Origin: Escherichia coli
Lineage (GTDB): Bacteria; Pseudomonadota; Gammaproteobacteria; Enterobacterales; Enterobacteriaceae
Assembly: GCF_003334785.1 (NCBI RefSeq)
Contig: NZ_QOWV01000023.1
Reading direction: 5' to 3' (one strand)
DNA length: 45,913 nucleotides
This document shows positions 1 through 45,913 of the stretch, in pieces (the stretch's first letter is position 1; each line of letters begins with the position of its first letter). Made by a program: the position numbers and the translations under genes. The notes below the pieces were generated by a model that was not told where the DNA came from, made no database searches, and saw only the letters and a list, made by a program, of their open reading frames with translations.

Positions 1-632
1 GCCTGCCGGGGCAGCAGTATGATGAGGAGTCCGGCCTGTATTACAACCGCCACCGCTATTATGACCCGCTGCAGGGGAGGTATATCACTCAGGATCCGAT
101 TGGGCTGAAGGGGGGATGGAATTTTTATCAGTATCCGCTGAATCCGGTTCAGTATATAGATTCAATGGGACTGGCATCAAAATATGGACACTTAAATAAT
201 GGCGGATATGGAGCGAGACCCAACAAACCGCCTACGCCCGATCCAAGTAAATTGCCGGACATAGCGAAACAATTAAGACTGCCATATCCTATTGACCAGG
301 CCAGTAGTGCGCCTAATGTTTTCAAAACATTCTTCAGAGCATTAAGCCCTTACGACTACACACTGTATTGCAGGAAGTGGGTAAAACCAAATCTGACTTG
401 TACGCCACAGGATGATTCCCAGTATCCAGGGATGGATACAAAGACAGCAAGTGATTACCTGCCACAGACAAATTGGCCAACAACTCAATTACCACCAGGA
501 TATACTTGTGCAGAACCCTATTTATTCCCAGACATTAATAAACCCGATGGGCCAGCAACAGCAGGGATAGATGATTTGGGTGAAATTTTAGCTAAGATGA
601 AACAGAGAACATCGAGAGGAATAAGAAAATGA
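1..632 (+). CDS. ybfO: Rhs-family protein, C-terminal fragment (5' end outside window): end of the Rhs core with a DPIGL motif (nt 93-107) followed by a ~175-aa variable C-terminal tip
   Basis: Frame continuous from nt 3 ([57 protein letters not shown]...), a typical Rhs core terminus; stop overlaps the next ORF start (ATGA at 629-632). Symbol from remembered K-12 synteny (orphan rhs next to ybfC). Confidence 0.8.
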
Positions 633-1198
633 AAAGAGTTTTGTTCTTTTTGCTGATGATATTTGTTAGTTTTGGTGTTATAGCTGATTGCGAAATACAA
701 GCTAAAGATCATGATTGTTTTACTATTTTCGCTAAGGGTACTATTTTTTCCGCGTTTCCTGTCTTAAATAATAAAGCCATGTGGAGATGGTATCAGAATG
801 AGGACATCGGTGAGTATTATTGGCAAACAGAACTGGGTACATGTAAAAATAATAAATTCACACCAAGCGGGGCGAGACTCTTAATTCGCGTCGGGTCACT
901 ACGCCTTAATGAAAATCATGCCATCAAAGGAACGTTGCAGGAGTTGATAAATACAGCAGAAAAAACGGCGTTTCTCGGCGATCGGTTTAGAAGTTATATA
1001 AGAGCGGGTATCTATCAAAAAAAGAGCAGTGATCCAGTTCAGTTGTTGGCAGTCCTTGATAATTCAATCATGGTAAAATATTTTAAAGATGAGAAACCAA
1101 CTTATGCTCGAATGACAGCACATCTCCCGAACAAAAATGAGTCTTACGAATGTTTAATAAAGATACAGCATGAACTAATTCGTAGTGAAGAGAAATAA
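629..1198 (+). CDS. ybfC: Small protein with N-terminal hydrophobic signal-like segment, immediately downstream of the Rhs tip; candidate cognate immunity protein
   Basis: 189-aa ORF, start overlaps the rhs stop by 4 nt; N-terminus [21 protein letters not shown] is signal-peptide-like. Immunity role inferred from the Rhs toxin/immunity gene-pair paradigm. Confidence 0.8.
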
Positions 1199-1280
1199 AA
1201 TCTCTTCCTGAGAAAACAAATTAATCATTGTGAAAAATTATATAACTCATGGAATAGGTGTTTATTTTGCGTTCCATTTG

Positions 1281-2570
1281 CAGGGAAAGATCACGTAACG
1301 CTACTTTTTTGTACTAAATAATTCGCATTTTATGTTTAAAAATTGAGATATTCCTTATTACCTAAAGCTGTTTTTCATAGCTTATACATGATCAAATACT
1401 CCTTACATAAATAAGGTGAACAAATGGAACTTAAAAAATTGATGGAACATATTTCTATTATTCCCGATTACAGATAAGCCTGGAAAGTAGAGCATAAATT
1501 GTCAGGCATCCTACTATTGACTATTTTTGCCGTTATTTCTGGTGCAGAAAGTTGGGAAGATATAGAGGATTTCGGGGAAACACATCTCGATTTCTTGAAG
1601 CAATATGGTGATTTTGAAAATGGTATTCCTGTTCACGATACTATTGCCAGAGTTGTATCCTGTATCAGTCCTGCAAAATTTCACGAGTGCTTTATTAACT
1701 GGATGCGTGATTGCCATTCATCAAATGATAAAGACGTCATTGCAATTGATGGAAAAACGCTCCGGCACTCTTATGACAAGAGTCGCCGCAGGGGAGCGAT
1801 TCATGTCATTAGTGCGTTCTCAACAATGCACAGTCTGGTCATCGGGCAGATCAAGACGGATAAGAAATCCAATGAGATCACAGCTATCCCTGAACTTCTT
1901 AACATGCTGGATATTAAAGGAAAAATCATCACAACTGATGCGATGGGTTGCCAGAAAGATATTGCAGAGAAGATACAAAAACAGGGAGGTGATTATTTAT
2001 TCGCTGTAAAAGGAAACCAGGGGCGGCTTAATAAAGCCTTTGAGGAAAAATTTCCGCTGAAAGAATTAAATAATCCAGAGCATGACAGTTACGCAATGAG
2101 TGAAAAGAGTCACGGCAGAGAAGAAATCCGTCTTCATATTGTTTGCGATGTCCCTGATGAACTTATTGATTTCACGTTTGAATGGAAAGGACTGAAGAAA
2201 TTATGCGTGGCAGTCTCCTTTCGGTCAATAATAGCAGAACAAAAGAAAGAGCCAGAAATGACGGTCAGATATTATATCAGTTCTGCTGATTTAACCGCAG
2301 AAAAGTTCGCCACAGCAATCCGAAACCACTGGCACGTGGAGAATAAGCTGCACTGGCGTCTGGACGTGGTAATGAATGAAGACGACTGCAAAATAAGAAG
2401 AGGAAACGCCGCAGAATTATTTTCAGGGATACGGCACATCGCTATTAATATTTTAACGAATGATAAGGTATTCAAGGCAGGGTTAAGACGTAAGATGCGA
2501 AAAGCAGCCATGGATAGAAACTATCTCGCGTCAGTCCTTGCGGGGAGCGGGCTTTCGTAATCTTTCCCTG
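1281..2570 (+). mobile_element. H-repeat (ISAs1-family-like) element, copy 1, ~1290 bp with imperfect 15-bp terminal inverted repeats
   Basis: Left end CAGGGAAAGATCACG (1281-1295); right end CGTAATCTTTCCCTG (2556-2570), whose reverse complement is CAGGGAAAGATTACG. Contains one transposase-like ORF. Confidence 0.7.
1424..2560 (+). pseudogene. ybfL: H-repeat-associated transposase-like gene inactivated by an in-frame TAA at 1475-1477; otherwise full length (~378 codons)
   Basis: ATG at 1424 ([17 protein letters not shown]) runs into TAA where copy 2 has CAA; the frame then stays open to 2560 (ORF track 1499..2560). Symbol ybfQ/ybfL from memory, assignment between the two uncertain. Confidence 0.75.
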
Positions 2571-3524
2571 CTTTTTGTACTAAATAATTCGCATTTTATG
2601 TTTAAAAATTGAGATATTCCTTATTACCTGAAGCTGTTTTTTATTGCTTATACATGATCAAATACTTCTTACATAATTAAGGAGAACAAAATGGAACTTA
2701 AAAAATTGATGGAACATATTTCTATTATCCCCGATTACAGACAAGCCTGGAAAGTGGAACATAAATTATCGGATATTCTACTGTTGACTATTTGTGCCGT
2801 TATTTCTGGTGCAGAAGGCTGGGAAGATATAGAGGATTTTGGGGAAACACATCCCGATTTTTTGAAGCAATATGGTGATTTTGAAAATGGTATTCCTGTT
2901 CACGATACCATTGCCAGAGTTGTATCCTGTATCTGTCCTGCGAAATTTCATGAGAGCTTTATTAACTGGATGCTTGACTACCATTCTTCAGATGATAAAG
3001 ACGTCATCGCAATTGATGGAAAAATACACCGGCATTCTTATGACAAGAGTCGCCGTAAGGGAGCGATTCATGTCATTAGTGCGTTCTCAACAATGCACAG
3101 TCTGGTCATCGGACAGATCAAGACGGATAAGAAATCCAATGAGATCACAGCTATCCCTGAACTTCTTAACATGCTGGATATTAAAGGAAAAATCATCACA
3201 ACTGATGCGATGGGTTGCCAGAAAGATATTGCAGAGAAGATACAAAAACAGGGAGGTGATTATTTATTCGCTGTAAAAGGAAACCAGGGGCGGCTAAATA
3301 AAGCCTTCGAGGAAAAATTTCCGCTGAAAGAATTAAATAATCCCAAGCATGACAGTTACGCAATTAGTGAAAAGAGTCACGGCAGAGAAGAAACCCGTCT
3401 TCATATTGTTTGCGATGTCCCTGATGAGCTTATTGATTTCACGTTTGAATAGAAAGGGCAGCTATGGTTAGAAACTACCTGACGTCAGTCCTTGCGGGGA
3501 GCAGGCTTTCGTAAATTTGTCCTG
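2571..3524 (+). mobile_element. H-repeat element, copy 2, head-to-tail with copy 1; lacks the left inverted repeat and ~313 bp of internal 3' sequence
   Basis: Homology to copy 1 begins at 2571 (CTTTTTGTACTAAATAATTCGC, equivalent to copy 1 ~1305) and ends in a degenerate right repeat CGTAAATTTGTCCTG (3510-3524). Confidence 0.65.
2691..3452 (+). CDS. ybfD: H-repeat-associated protein, C-terminally truncated transposase-like ORF (253 aa)
   Basis: Near-identical to copy 1 through ...DFTFE, then TAG at 3450-3452 where copy 1 has TGG, followed by a ~313-bp deletion relative to copy 1. Confidence 0.8.
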
Positions 3525-3599
3525 CTACAACAGGATTAACTTCACAAATATCATTTCTCAACGTCTACACTTACTCCTGTAAACCGCTCAGGAGCAGTA

Positions 3600-4109
3600 A
3601 TGAATCTACAACGATTTGATGACAGCACCCTAATCCGTATCTTTGCCCTTCATGAGTTACATCGACTGAAAGAACATGGCTTAACGCGCGGGGCGCTTCT
3701 CGATTATCACAGCCGCTATAAACTCGTCTTTCTGGCGCATTCTCAGTCGGAGTACCGCAAACTTGGCCCGTTCGTGGCTGATATTCACCAGTGGCAAAAT
3801 CTGGATGACTATTACAACCAGTACCGCCAACGCGTAGTTGTTTTGCTTTCTCACCCCGCCAACCCGCGCGATCACACCAATGTTTTGATGCACGTTCAGG
3901 GTTATTTTCGCCCGCATATTGATTCCACAGAACGCCAGCAGCTGGCTGCGCTTATCGACAGTTATCGCCGTGGCGAGCAACCACTTCTTGCGCCGCTGAT
4001 GCGTATCAAACACTATATGGCGCTTTATCCTGACGCCTGGCTTTCAGGGCAGCGTTATTTCGAACTTTGGCCGCGTGTGATTAACTTGCGCCATTCAGGA
4101 GTTTTATGA
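3600..4109 (+). CDS. ybgA: DUF1722-family protein, upstream partner of photolyase
   Basis: 169-aa ORF; stop overlaps phr start (ATGA at 4106-4109); recognised ybgA-phr arrangement. Confidence 0.9.
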   Translation: MNLQRFDDSTLIRIFALHELHRLKEHGLTRGALLDYHSRYKLVFLAHSQSEYRKLGPFVADIHQWQNLDDYYNQYRQRVVVLLSHPANPRDHTNVLMHVQGYFRPHIDSTERQQLAALIDSYRRGEQPLLAPLMRIKHYMALYPDAWLSGQRYFELWPRVINLRHSGVL

Positions 4110-5551: not shown

Positions 5552-5660
5552 TGCCGGATGCGGCGTGAACGCCTTATCCAGCCTACAAATTTGTGCAAAT
5601 TCAATAAATTGCAGGAAATACGTAGGCCTGATAAGACGCGTCAAGCGTCGCATCAGGCAT
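5552..5660. repeat. REP/BIME repetitive extragenic palindromes between convergent phr and dtpD
   Basis: GCCGGATGCGGCGTGAACGCCTTATCCAGCCTACA and GTAGGCCTGATAAGACGCGTCAAGCGTCGCATCAGGCA are canonical E. coli REP units. Confidence 0.75.
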
Positions 5661-23005: not shown

Positions 23006-23126
23006 CCGTAGGCCTGATAAGACGCGCAAGCGTCGCATCAGGCAACCAGTGCCGGATGCGGCGTGAACGCCTTATCCGGCCTACAAGTCATTACCCGTAG
23101 GCCTGATAAGCGCAGCGCATCAGGCG
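23006..23126. repeat. REP/BIME cluster (three REP units) between sdhB and sucA
   Basis: CCGTAGGCCTGATAAGACGCGCAAGCGTCGCATCAGGCA, GCCGGATGCGGCGTGAACGCCTTATCCGGCCTACA and CCGTAGGCCTGATAAGCGCAGCGCATCAGGCG. Confidence 0.75.
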
Positions 23127-27360: not shown

Positions 27361-27625
27361 GTAGACCGGATAAGGCATTATCGCCTTCTCCGGCAATTGA
27401 AGCCTGATGCGACGCTGACGCGTCTTATCAGGCCTACGGGACCACCAATGTAGGTCGGATAAGGCGCTAGCGCCGCATCCGACAAGCGATGCCTGATGTG
27501 ACGGTTAACGTGTCTTATCAGGCCTACGGGGACCACCAATGTAGGTCGGATAAGGCGCAAGCGCCGCATCCGACAAGCGATGCCTGATGTGACGTTTAAC
27601 GTGTCTTATCAGGCCTACGGGTGAC
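27361..27625. repeat. Tandem BIME array of REP pairs: ~90-bp unit, ~2.4 copies
   Basis: Units at 27402-27490, 27491-27581 and partial 27582-27621, each GCCTGATG(C/T)GACG...GTCTTATCAGGCCTACGGG...CCACCAATGTAGGTCGGATAAGGCGC.AGCGCCGCATCCGACAAGCGAT. Confidence 0.8.
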
Positions 27626-43732: not shown

Positions 43733-44278
<546 letters not shown>

Positions 44279-44287
44279 GAGAATTGC

Positions 44288-45079
44288 ATGAGCAGTAACT
44301 TCAGACATCAACTATTGAGTCTGTCGTTACTGGTTGGTATAGCGGCCCCCTGGGCCGCTTTTGCTCAGGCACCAATCAGTAGTGTCGGCTCAGGCTCGGT
44401 CGAAGACCGCGTCACTCAACTTGAGCGTATTTCTAATGCTCACAGCCAGCTTTTAACCCAACTCCAGCAACAACTTTCTGATAATCAATCCGATATTGAT
44501 TCCCTGCGTGGTCAGATTCAGGAAAATCAGTATCAACTGAATCAGGTCGTGGAGCGGCAAAAGCAGATCCTGTTGCAGATCGACAGCCTCAGCAGCGGTG
44601 GTGCAGCGGCGCAATCAACCAGCGGCGATCAAAGCGGTGCGGCGGCATCAACGACGCCGACAGCTGATGCTGGTACTGCGAATGCTGGCGCGCCGGTGAA
44701 AAGCGGTAATGCAAACACGGATTACAATGCAGCTATTGCGCTGGTGCAGGATAAATCCCGCCAGGATGACGCAATGGTGGCATTTCAGAATTTCATCAAA
44801 AATTACCCTGATTCAACTTACCTGCCAAACGCCAATTATTGGCTGGGTCAGTTAAACTACAACAAGGGTAAAAAAGATGATGCGGCGTACTATTTTGCTT
44901 CGGTAGTGAAAAACTATCCGAAGTCACCAAAGGCTGCAGATGCGATGTTTAAAGTCGGCGTCATCATGCAGGACAAAGGTGACACCGCAAAAGCGAAAGC
45001 CGTATACCAGCAGGTTATCAGTAAATACCCTGGTACTGATGGCGCTAAACAGGCACAAAAACGTCTGAACGCGATGTAA
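44288..45079 (+). CDS. cpoB: Cell-division coordinator CpoB (TPR-repeat periplasmic protein)
   Basis: 263-aa ORF with signal peptide, coiled-coil and C-terminal TPR-like repeats; formerly ybgF. Confidence 0.93.
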   Translation: MSSNFRHQLLSLSLLVGIAAPWAAFAQAPISSVGSGSVEDRVTQLERISNAHSQLLTQLQQQLSDNQSDIDSLRGQIQENQYQLNQVVERQKQILLQIDSLSSGGAAAQSTSGDQSGAAASTTPTADAGTANAGAPVKSGNANTDYNAAIALVQDKSRQDDAMVAFQNFIKNYPDSTYLPNANYWLGQLNYNKGKKDDAAYYFASVVKNYPKSPKAADAMFKVGVIMQDKGDTAKAKAVYQQVISKYPGTDGAKQAQKRLNAM

Positions 45080-45243: not shown

Positions 45244-45319
45244 GGGTCGTTAGCTCAGTTGGTAGAGCAGTTGACTTTTAATCAATTGGTCGCAGGTTCG
45301 AATCCTGCACGACCCACCA
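45244..45319 (+). tRNA. lysT: tRNA-Lys (anticodon UUU)
   Basis: 76-nt GGGTCGTTAGCTCAGTTGGTAGAGCAGTTGACTTTTAATCAATTGGTCGCAGGTTCGAATCCTGCACGACCCACCA, CCA encoded. Confidence 0.95.
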
Positions 45320-45454
45320 ATCGCTAAGGTGGAAGCGGTAGTAAAACGTGAAGGATAACGTTGCATGAGCAACGGCCCGAAGGGCGAGACGAAGTCGAGT
45401 CATCCTGCACGACCCACCACTAACATAGTTAGTTGTAGTATCCAGCGTAGTATC

Positions 45455-45530
45455 GGGTGATTAGCTCAGCTGGGAGAGCACCTCCCTTACAAGGAGGGGG
45501 TCGGCGGTTCGATCCCGTCATCACCCACCA
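45455..45530 (+). tRNA. valT: tRNA-Val (anticodon UAC)
   Basis: 76-nt GGGTGATTAGCTCAGCTGGGAGAGCACCTCCCTTACAAGGAGGGGGTCGGCGGTTCGATCCCGTCATCACCCACCA. Confidence 0.95.
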
Positions 45531-45533
45531 CTC

Positions 45534-45609
45534 GGGTCGTTAGCTCAGTTGGTAGAGCAGTTGACTTTTAATCAATTGGTCGCAGGTTCGAATCCTGCAC
45601 GACCCACCA
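45534..45609 (+). tRNA. lysW: tRNA-Lys (anticodon UUU)
   Basis: Identical 76-nt tRNA-Lys sequence, 3 nt after valT. Confidence 0.95.
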
Positions 45610-45758
45610 GTTTTAACATCGAAGACAGATGTTAAGCGTGTAGGATAACGTTGCGTCAGCAACGGCCCGTAGGGCGAGCGAAGCGAGTCATCCTGCACGA
45701 CCCACCACTAATGACGGTGGGTTCGGTGGAAGTAGTTTGTAGTATCCAGCGCAGTATC

Positions 45759-45834
45759 GGGTGATTAGCTCAGCTGGGAGAGCACCTCCCTTACAAGGAG
45801 GGGGTCGGCGGTTCGATCCCGTCATCACCCACCA
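45759..45834 (+). tRNA. valZ: tRNA-Val (anticodon UAC)
   Basis: Identical 76-nt tRNA-Val sequence. Confidence 0.95.
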
Positions 45835-45837
45835 CTC

Positions 45838-45913
45838 GGGTCGTTAGCTCAGTTGGTAGAGCAGTTGACTTTTAATCAATTGGTCGCAGGTTCGAATCCT
45901 GCACGACCCACCA
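45838..45913 (+). tRNA. lysY: tRNA-Lys (anticodon UUU); ends exactly at the window edge
   Basis: Identical 76-nt tRNA-Lys sequence ending in CCA at 45911-45913. Confidence 0.9.

Follow-up and report, generated by a model that had tools for sequence, protein, structure and literature searches.

The stretch analysed here (45,913 nucleotides of Escherichia coli contig NZ_QOWV01000023.1, assembly GCF_003334785.1; hereafter the window) carries near its left end the 3' end of an Rhs gene, the small gene ybfC, two H-repeat units and the core gene ybgA, in that order (Table 1). The two units, designated copy 1 and copy 2, follow the Rhs tip and its ybfC partner in head-to-tail order, and together they are the long-known H-rpt array at the distal end of RhsC, between ybfC and ybgA. 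An earlier note on this DNA had described them as tandem ISAs1-like copies at the end of an Rhs element, each inactivated by a different lesion and decaying independently. The ISAs1-like identity was borne out by profile matches, the position at an Rhs element by the neighbouring Rhs tip and ybfC, and the head-to-tail homology by pairwise alignment, in which a left homologous block of 886 nucleotides (nt) was 94.5% identical (49 substitutions), far beyond chance. It is very probable that the locus as a whole consists of two dead, separate H-repeat alleles of the RhsC array which have been subject to gene conversion and to repeat-mediated change in copy number.

Table 1. Features of the H-repeat array and its neighbours in the window, with the differences between the two copies by segment of the element (ORF, open reading frame)
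Feature	Position	Strand	Basis
H-repeat copy 1, full-length ISEc1-like (ISAs1-family) element, 1,290 bp	1281..2570	+	alignments; RefSeq label in matching genomes 'ISAs1 family transposase, internal stop'
Left terminal inverted repeat of copy 1, CAGGGAAAGATCACG	1281..1295	+	repeat search
Transposase frame of copy 1, ATG 1424 to stop ending 2560, 378 codons; sole interruption TAA at codon 18	1424..2560	+	translation
Derived nonsense codon TAA, codon 18 of copy 1 (CAA in intact elements and in copy 2)	1475..1477	+	alignment
Right terminal inverted repeat of copy 1, CGTAATCTTTCCCTG, joined directly to base 25 of copy 2	2556..2570	+	repeat search, alignment
H-repeat copy 2 (ybfD pseudogene), 954 bp, without first 24 bp (left repeat) and 313 internal nt	2571..3524	+	alignments; RefSeq label in matching genomes 'ybfD, ISAs1 family transposase, missing C-terminus'
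Shortened ORF of copy 2, ATG 2691, 253 codons and TAG; N-terminal domain and first two-thirds of DDE domain kept	2691..3452	+	ORF list, profile match
Homogenised tract of copy 2, paired with copy 1 1792-2028; 1 difference in 237 nt	3059..3295	+	compared with 8% in the preceding 487 nt and 5% over 162 nt
Derived nonsense codon TAG, codon 254 of copy 2 (TGG in copy 1 at 2183-2185, intact elements and the EE72d orthologue)	3450..3452	+	alignment
Junction of 313-nt deletion in copy 2, GGGC/AGC(C), 2-nt GC overlap	3457..3460	+	alignment to parental allele
Degenerate right inverted repeat of copy 2, CGTAAATTTGTCCTG; four changes from intact CGTAATCTTGCCCTG of EE72d	3510..3524	+	alignment
Copy 1 vs copy 2, 7/121 differences	element bases 25-145
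Copy 1 vs copy 2, 17/235 differences	element bases 146-380
Copy 1 vs copy 2, 16/140 differences	element bases 381-520
Copy 1 vs copy 2, 2/240 differences	element bases 521-760
Copy 1 vs copy 2, 7/150 differences	element bases 761-910
Copy 1 vs copy 2, 8/54 differences	tail (1224-1290)
Rhs gene 3' end (C-terminal toxin tip, ybfO-type), ORF open at left end of window	1..632	+	16-residue stretch, then unique tip; RefSeq 'RHS repeat-associated core domain-containing protein' on identical stretch in FORC 064 and K-12
ybfC, 189 aa, small gene after Rhs tip, start overlapping tip stop (ATGA)	629..1198	+	ORF; 'protein YbfC', WP_000832338.1, in matching genomes
ybgA, first core gene right of array, then phrB	3600..4109	+	ORF, RefSeq annotation of matching genomes

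Translations of both units were compared with the NCBIfam model of the ISAs1 transposase (NF033564; cut-off 70 bits, profile length 314). The product of copy 1, with glutamine restored at codon 18, scored 414.6 bits over profile positions 1-314 of 314, and the 253-residue product of copy 2 scored 282.7 bits over positions 1-220 of 314 only. Two Pfam domains were identified in the copy 1 product, PF13808 (DDE_Tnp_1_assoc; residues 8-94, E = 9.9e-32) and PF01609 (DDE_Tnp_1; residues 102-343, E = 7.1e-31). By these matches both units are classified as H-repeat / ISEc1-like members of the ISAs1 family. Copy 1 has the size and ends of an insertion sequence (IS) of this family (about 1.2-1.5 kb with short terminal inverted repeats) and copy 2 alone does not, while the transposase frame is interrupted in both; on their sequences, the two are classed as relic pseudogenes of this family.

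The intact H-repeat of RhsB/RhsE, ISEc1 (yhhI / ydcC), resembles the window copies in its length class (1,290-1,291 bp), its terminal repeats (CAGGGAAAGATCA... and ...CGTAATCTTNCCCTG), its 378-codon transposase gene and its DNA sequence (95-97% identity), but differs from them in having an open frame, with CAA at codon 18, TGG at codon 254 and no deletion. These intact relatives (ydcC, yhhI) are annotated as 'ISAs1-like element ISEc1 family transposase'. All genome counts given here refer to a comparison set of 5,426 complete E. coli genomes, 5,356 of which carried ISEc1-related elements (megablast), at a median of five places per genome. H-repeats were listed among the insertion sequences in the E. 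coli W genome paper, with transposition never observed (PMC3032704), and ISAs1 circles were not clearly seen in K-12 in a mobilome preprint.

The right repeat of copy 1, when reverse-complemented, reads CAGGGAAAGATTACG and matches the left repeat at 14 of 15 positions; in the repeat search the arms could be extended to 19 nt with 89% complementarity (17/19; 1280-1298 and 2553-2571). The presence of both repeats on copy 1, and of a TAA at 1475-1477 opposite CAA at 2742-2744 of copy 2, was confirmed as the earlier note had it. Downstream of this stop, a TTG at 1499 opens an ORF of 353 codons, long enough to cover the NF033564 profile from end to end.

Copy 2 starts at 2571, directly after CCCTG (the last bases of the copy 1 right repeat), and its alignment to the element begins at base 25, its own left repeat being absent; this junction had been read correctly from the sequence, as had the TAG at 3450-3452 opposite TGG at 2183-2185 of copy 1. 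The deletion in copy 2 begins 5 bases past the TAG and the missing nucleotides correspond to copy 1 bases 2191-2503, so that the loss, previously put at about 313 bp, is of 313 nt exactly; homology to the right of it (2504-2572 with 3458-3526) is 86% identical. The GAAAG microhomology proposed at the breakpoint proved inexact on alignment: in copy 1, GAAAG stands at 2185-2189 and GAAAAG at 2499-2504, and these do not overlap exactly at the 313-nt offset. The allele ancestral to copy 2 (GGAAAGGGCTG, present in the O157 and EE72d copies) gives a junction GGGC/AGCC, in which the overlap is a 2-nt GC. The deletion is out of frame and eliminated codons 256-360, and with them the predicted C-terminal third of the DDE domain; the HWHVENK motif, which by likeness to other DDE_Tnp_1 transposases probably carries the catalytic glutamate, was among the codons lost. 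The reading frame of the deletion, the degenerate right repeat of copy 2 and the usual three-copy form of the array (see below) are additions to what had been noticed before.

The polarity of the lesions was determined by comparison with three intact references, namely the ydcC copy of Ecol_276, the Rhs-linked copy of GF153 and the O157:H7 copy next to ybgA. In all three, codon 18 reads CAA, codon 254 reads TGG and no gap is present, and the TAA, the TAG and the deletion are therefore all derived, which upholds the claim that each copy was inactivated by lesions of its own. The order of events in copy 2 was obtained from strain EE72d, in which a solo orthologue of copy 2 (L009:1730-2707) was found with the same right flank (CTACAACAGGATTAAC...) and the same 313-nt deletion. 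In this orthologue both end repeats are present, the right one intact and the left one of a different type (CAGGGAAAGATCATCAGAAGTACA); codon 254 is still TGG rather than TAG, and codon 119 has changed independently from AAG to TAG. Of the lesions of copy 2 the deletion is therefore the oldest, and the TAG, the right-repeat decay and the loss of 24 bp from the left end were acquired later. As the solo copy is already deleted, the deletion also predates the juxtaposition of the two units, and the full-length copy 1 is not a duplicate of copy 2. The EE72d orthologue comes after a different Rhs tip fragment. Among substitutions private to one copy, 5 non-synonymous and 14 synonymous changes were counted in copy 1, compared to 11 and 7 in copy 2 (Fisher P = 0.049); the pattern in copy 1 would fit a gene that was functional until recently, and that in copy 2 a long-dead gene.

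Divergence between the two copies was found to be strongly uneven, at 7-11% in the segments flanking a central tract and 0.8% within it. The longest run free of substitutions was 182 nt, a gap reached in only 0.04% of permutations (maximum-gap permutation test, P = 4e-4). Within the central tract both copies share states which differ from all three intact references, and such shared private states are the signature of conversion between neighbouring copies. Outside it, the two copies resemble different alleles: over element bases 146-380, copy 2 differs from the ydcC allele at 3 of 235 positions and copy 1 from every intact reference at 15-18 of 235, while over bases 381-520 copy 1 matches the GF153 allele throughout (0/140) and copy 2 differs from all references at 9-16 of 140.

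Conversion was not confined to the array. In strain E2865, a full-length ISEc1-like pseudogene within an Rhs fragment near yafV/ivy/fadE (L011:3846-5135) is otherwise O157-like and shows no difference from copy 1 over about bases 100-342, the TAA included, the identity being limited to that patch. The presence of the TAA patch in an element at another locus indicates that lesions have also spread by gene conversion and that decay was not strictly local. Immediately before the E2865 element there is another ISAs1-family pseudogene, more distantly related (about 73% identity). The E2865 element itself is bounded on both sides by a perfect direct repeat of 10 bp, GCGTTAAACA, a true mark of transposition, from which it follows that ISAs1-family elements do make target duplications. 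No direct repeat was found around copy 1, around the whole array or around four other Rhs-linked copies; at the array, this fits two ends that come from different elements.

The corresponding array of K-12 (ybfQ / ybfL / ybfD) occupies the same site with identical flanks and has the same TAA, TAG, 313-nt deletion, lost left repeat and degenerate right repeat. Copy 1 and the second K-12 unit (ybfL pseudogene; L001:3562-4851) agree at 100% identity, and copy 2 differs from K-12 ybfD at only two positions, window 3199 and 3203, where the window has C and T, as do copy 1 and the intact elements, and K-12 has A and C. In the annotation of a K-12 derivative (NEB10-beta), the interval is labelled ybfQ (fragment), 'ISAs1 family transposase, internal stop' and ybfD ('missing C-terminus'). 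The K-12 array has three units, whereas the window has two, with the ybfC flank joined straight to copy 1. The additional K-12 unit, ybfQ (L001:3182-3561), comprises 380 bp from the left end of the element and differs from each of the other copies by about 6%; its left repeat and the ybfC flank before it are those seen at copy 1 in the window, and it ends in ...GTTGTATCC/CAGGGAAAG, abutting the left repeat of the next unit. Zhao et al. (1993) reportedly described three tandem H-rpt copies in RhsC, all of them defective.

When the comparison set was searched, the ybfC flank joined to a left repeat was found in 2,736 of the 5,426 genomes. Only 74 of the 2,736 had the two-copy form of the window at 99% identity or more and, with one stitched two-piece match set aside, the number is about 73. 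About 2,660 genomes carried the K-12-type fragment next to ybfC (96.7% identity to the query). The usual form of the array has three copies, and the two-copy form of the window is rare. The ybfC-flank query was used for these counts in place of the boundary between the K-12 fragment and the next copy, whose count of 2,530 is not clean, as non-collinear half-matches were joined and window-type genomes may be included. The junction of the right repeat to base 25 was present in 1,376 genomes and the 80-mer across the 313-nt deletion junction in 3,067, nearly always at one place per genome and exactly in 2,684. The exact TAA-bearing 80-mer was found in 2,621; a candidate TAA revertant (a 98.8%-identity match) proved to have the internal stop still present.

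The array was claimed to be a recombination substrate, and this is well supported, since one-, two- and three-copy forms and hybrids occur in other strains. An O112ab strain has a single hybrid copy, which passes from fragment type through copy 1 type to copy 2 type, in an interval equal to the query minus exactly one repeat period of 1,267 bp. KSC207 has the fragment and a copy 1/copy 2 hybrid with both the TAA and the deletion, KBN10P04869 has the fragment and copy 1 only, and the O157:H7 locus holds an intact element with other cassette genes. In KBN10P04869, about 330 bp of unrelated AT-rich DNA (L007:2790-3130) stand after the copy 1-type right repeat and before the ybgA leader, in place of copy 2.

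The following history would account for these observations. Copy 2 (ybfD) would be the older resident, once a complete element inserted just upstream of ybgA, which first lost 313 internal nucleotides at the 2-nt GC overlap and later gained the TGG to TAG change, several differences in its right repeat and, as is typical of pseudogenes, substitutions that for the most part alter amino acids. Copy 1 (ybfL) would be a separate, divergent allele and the incomer, held under purifying selection for most of its history until a late, single CAA to TAA mutation. Its intact right end would then have been fused to base 25 of copy 2, either by an IS-end-mediated adjacent deletion or by a small deletion at an abutted end-to-end junction. 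The left end of copy 1 in K-12 shows the same precision, being joined to base 380 of the ybfQ fragment; precise IS ends joined to internal sites of their neighbours, with no target duplication, are the expected product of IS-end-mediated adjacent deletion. A small deletion at an end-to-end junction would fit as well, and adjacent deletion is rather less likely than not to have been the route. Gene conversion would have evened out about 240 nt in the middle of the copies, and would also have moved the TAA patch between elements at different loci. The form in the window would have arisen from the three-unit array through a deletion between the left ends of the ybfQ fragment and copy 1, which are identical over 45 bp. 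At present the array would serve as a passive direct repeat of about 1 kb, homologous recombination on which yields copy-number variants and hybrid copies.

In these respects the array is typical of IS graveyards, the clusters of nested and truncated IS at island edges, with which it shares piled-up decayed copies, end-to-internal junctions, the lack of a target duplication, gene conversion and variation in copy number. A scan of 1150-3650 for promoters and terminators gave 9 promoter-like sites compared to 7.6 +/- 2.8 in shuffled sequence, which is not meaningfully above expectation. Given this background-level scan and the pseudogene-like substitutions in ybfD, nothing points to a present function; the array is predicted to encode no working transposase and probably lacks any function.

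One alternative, the history implied by the earlier note, is that one element was duplicated in tandem at the site and that the daughters then decayed independently. The head-to-tail order, the 94.5% identity over 886 nt and the different lesions speak for it. The different derived lesions of the two copies stand, but duplication in situ with strictly local decay is largely refuted and is now quite improbable. A duplicate would not be expected to diverge by 8% over 487 nt, 0.4% over 237 nt and 5% over 162 nt, nor would segments of each copy be nearer to different ISEc1 alleles than to each other; the EE72d solo copy is already deleted and has a left repeat of a type unlike that of copy 1, the TAA patch is shared with another locus, and a third, equally divergent fragment is present in most strains. 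A mis-joined or collapsed assembly, to which repeats of about 1.3 kb are prone, has a negligible probability, as FORC 064 (with identical flanks and the same two-unit structure) matches the window in a single uninterrupted alignment at 99.9% over 2,601 nt, and the diagnostic left junction was recovered in a single piece, at 99.6-100% identity, in 59 of the best 60 matches among complete genomes.

Two further alternatives would give the array an activity. The abutted right and left ends of (IS)2 dimers of IS30, IS21 and IS911 make a highly reactive junction or a strong promoter, and the array resembles the dimers of these elements and of IS2 in having two head-to-tail copies of one IS with no host DNA between them. 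That it is an active dimer with such a junction or junction promoter is hardly credible, however: its second left end is lost (copy 2 starts from base 25), both transposase frames are broken, and promoter-like sites are no more frequent than in shuffled sequence. An identical junction in 1,376 genomes marks it as stable and not as a transient intermediate, and a passive direct repeat stably inherited in more than 1,300 genomes is unlike a dimer in this respect. It is also very unlikely that the shortened protein of ybfD (253 aa; N-terminal domain and part of the DDE domain), or one made from copy 1 by restart, has been domesticated as an inhibitor of ISEc1 transposition or a DNA-binding regulator. 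The ybfD-type deletion junction is exact in 2,684 genomes, the PF13808 domain is kept in the ORF, and truncated transposases do inhibit in other IS families (for example Tn5 Inh); against this, the private substitutions of copy 2 are mostly non-synonymous (11 to 7), as under relaxed constraint, the frame of the EE72d orthologue ends early at another stop, at codon 119, many strains have hybrid copies which combine the TAA at codon 18 with the deletion, and conservation is no greater than ordinary identity within the species.

Some points weigh against the account of two separate dead alleles, which is nevertheless preferred. A restart product from TTG 1499 of copy 1 may, formally, be made. Several routes, of which adjacent deletion is one, could have joined the copy 1 right end to base 25 of copy 2, and the direction from three copies to two is suggested by parsimony and frequency and not by a rooted phylogeny. 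In principle the EE72d solo copy could have come from an array by a more complex path, although its different left repeat argues otherwise, and the contrast in synonymous and non-synonymous substitutions is marginal (P about 0.05) and was drawn with three intact references only.

The array itself is already known, its units being annotated as pseudogenes in every RefSeq E. coli genome that has them. What is added here is the ordering of the lesions (in copy 2 the deletion, then the TAG and the decay of the end; in copy 1 a single late nonsense mutation), the recognition of the copies as separate alleles patched by gene conversion rather than duplicates made in situ, and genome counts which show expansion and collapse of the array among strains. 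The locus could serve in textbooks to illustrate how IS decay and how repeats generate variation at the edge of an Rhs element, and possibly as a strain-typing marker, and is not a discovery. It could be imagined, though it is unlikely, that H-repeat arrays serve as a downstream homology anchor which, with the Rhs core upstream, allows toxin-tip/immunity cassettes to be exchanged between strains and between Rhs loci. If true, this would account for the persistence of dead copies in over half of all E. coli genomes, and for the occurrence of one allele patch, such as the TAA segment, in arrays at different Rhs loci; the co-variation of array architecture with the arrangement of the Rhs tip (K-12, O157, EE72d, 130119) and the conversion seen between loci are compatible with it.

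The arrangement of the Rhs tip was seen to vary along with the H-repeat array among the strains compared. In FORC 064 (L002:1-2533), 130119 (L010:1-317) and O157:H7 (L006:1-1033), the tip before ybfC is the annotated end of an Rhs gene, with no flag for a missing N-terminus; in K-12 (L001:1-2533) it is an orphan fragment behind rhsC-ybfB. YbfC opens with a hydrophobic stretch that resembles a signal sequence and ends in ...GVIADC; this may be the signal of a lipoprotein. On the right-hand side of the array phrB is followed by dtpD, and the GC content is 32-42% in the array and Rhs tip compared to 51-55% in ybgA and phrB. Elsewhere in the window, Rfam matches at 5587-5629, 23011-23081, 27453-27615 and 44179-44317 (ES036, naRNA4, which are REP-type repeats in three copies, and the CpoB/ybgF thermometer) are ordinary for the region. 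A tRNA cluster, Lys(UUU)-Val(UAC)-Lys-Val-Lys, occupies 45244-45913 together with two RtT repeat matches, and the end of its last tRNA-Lys is the end of the window.

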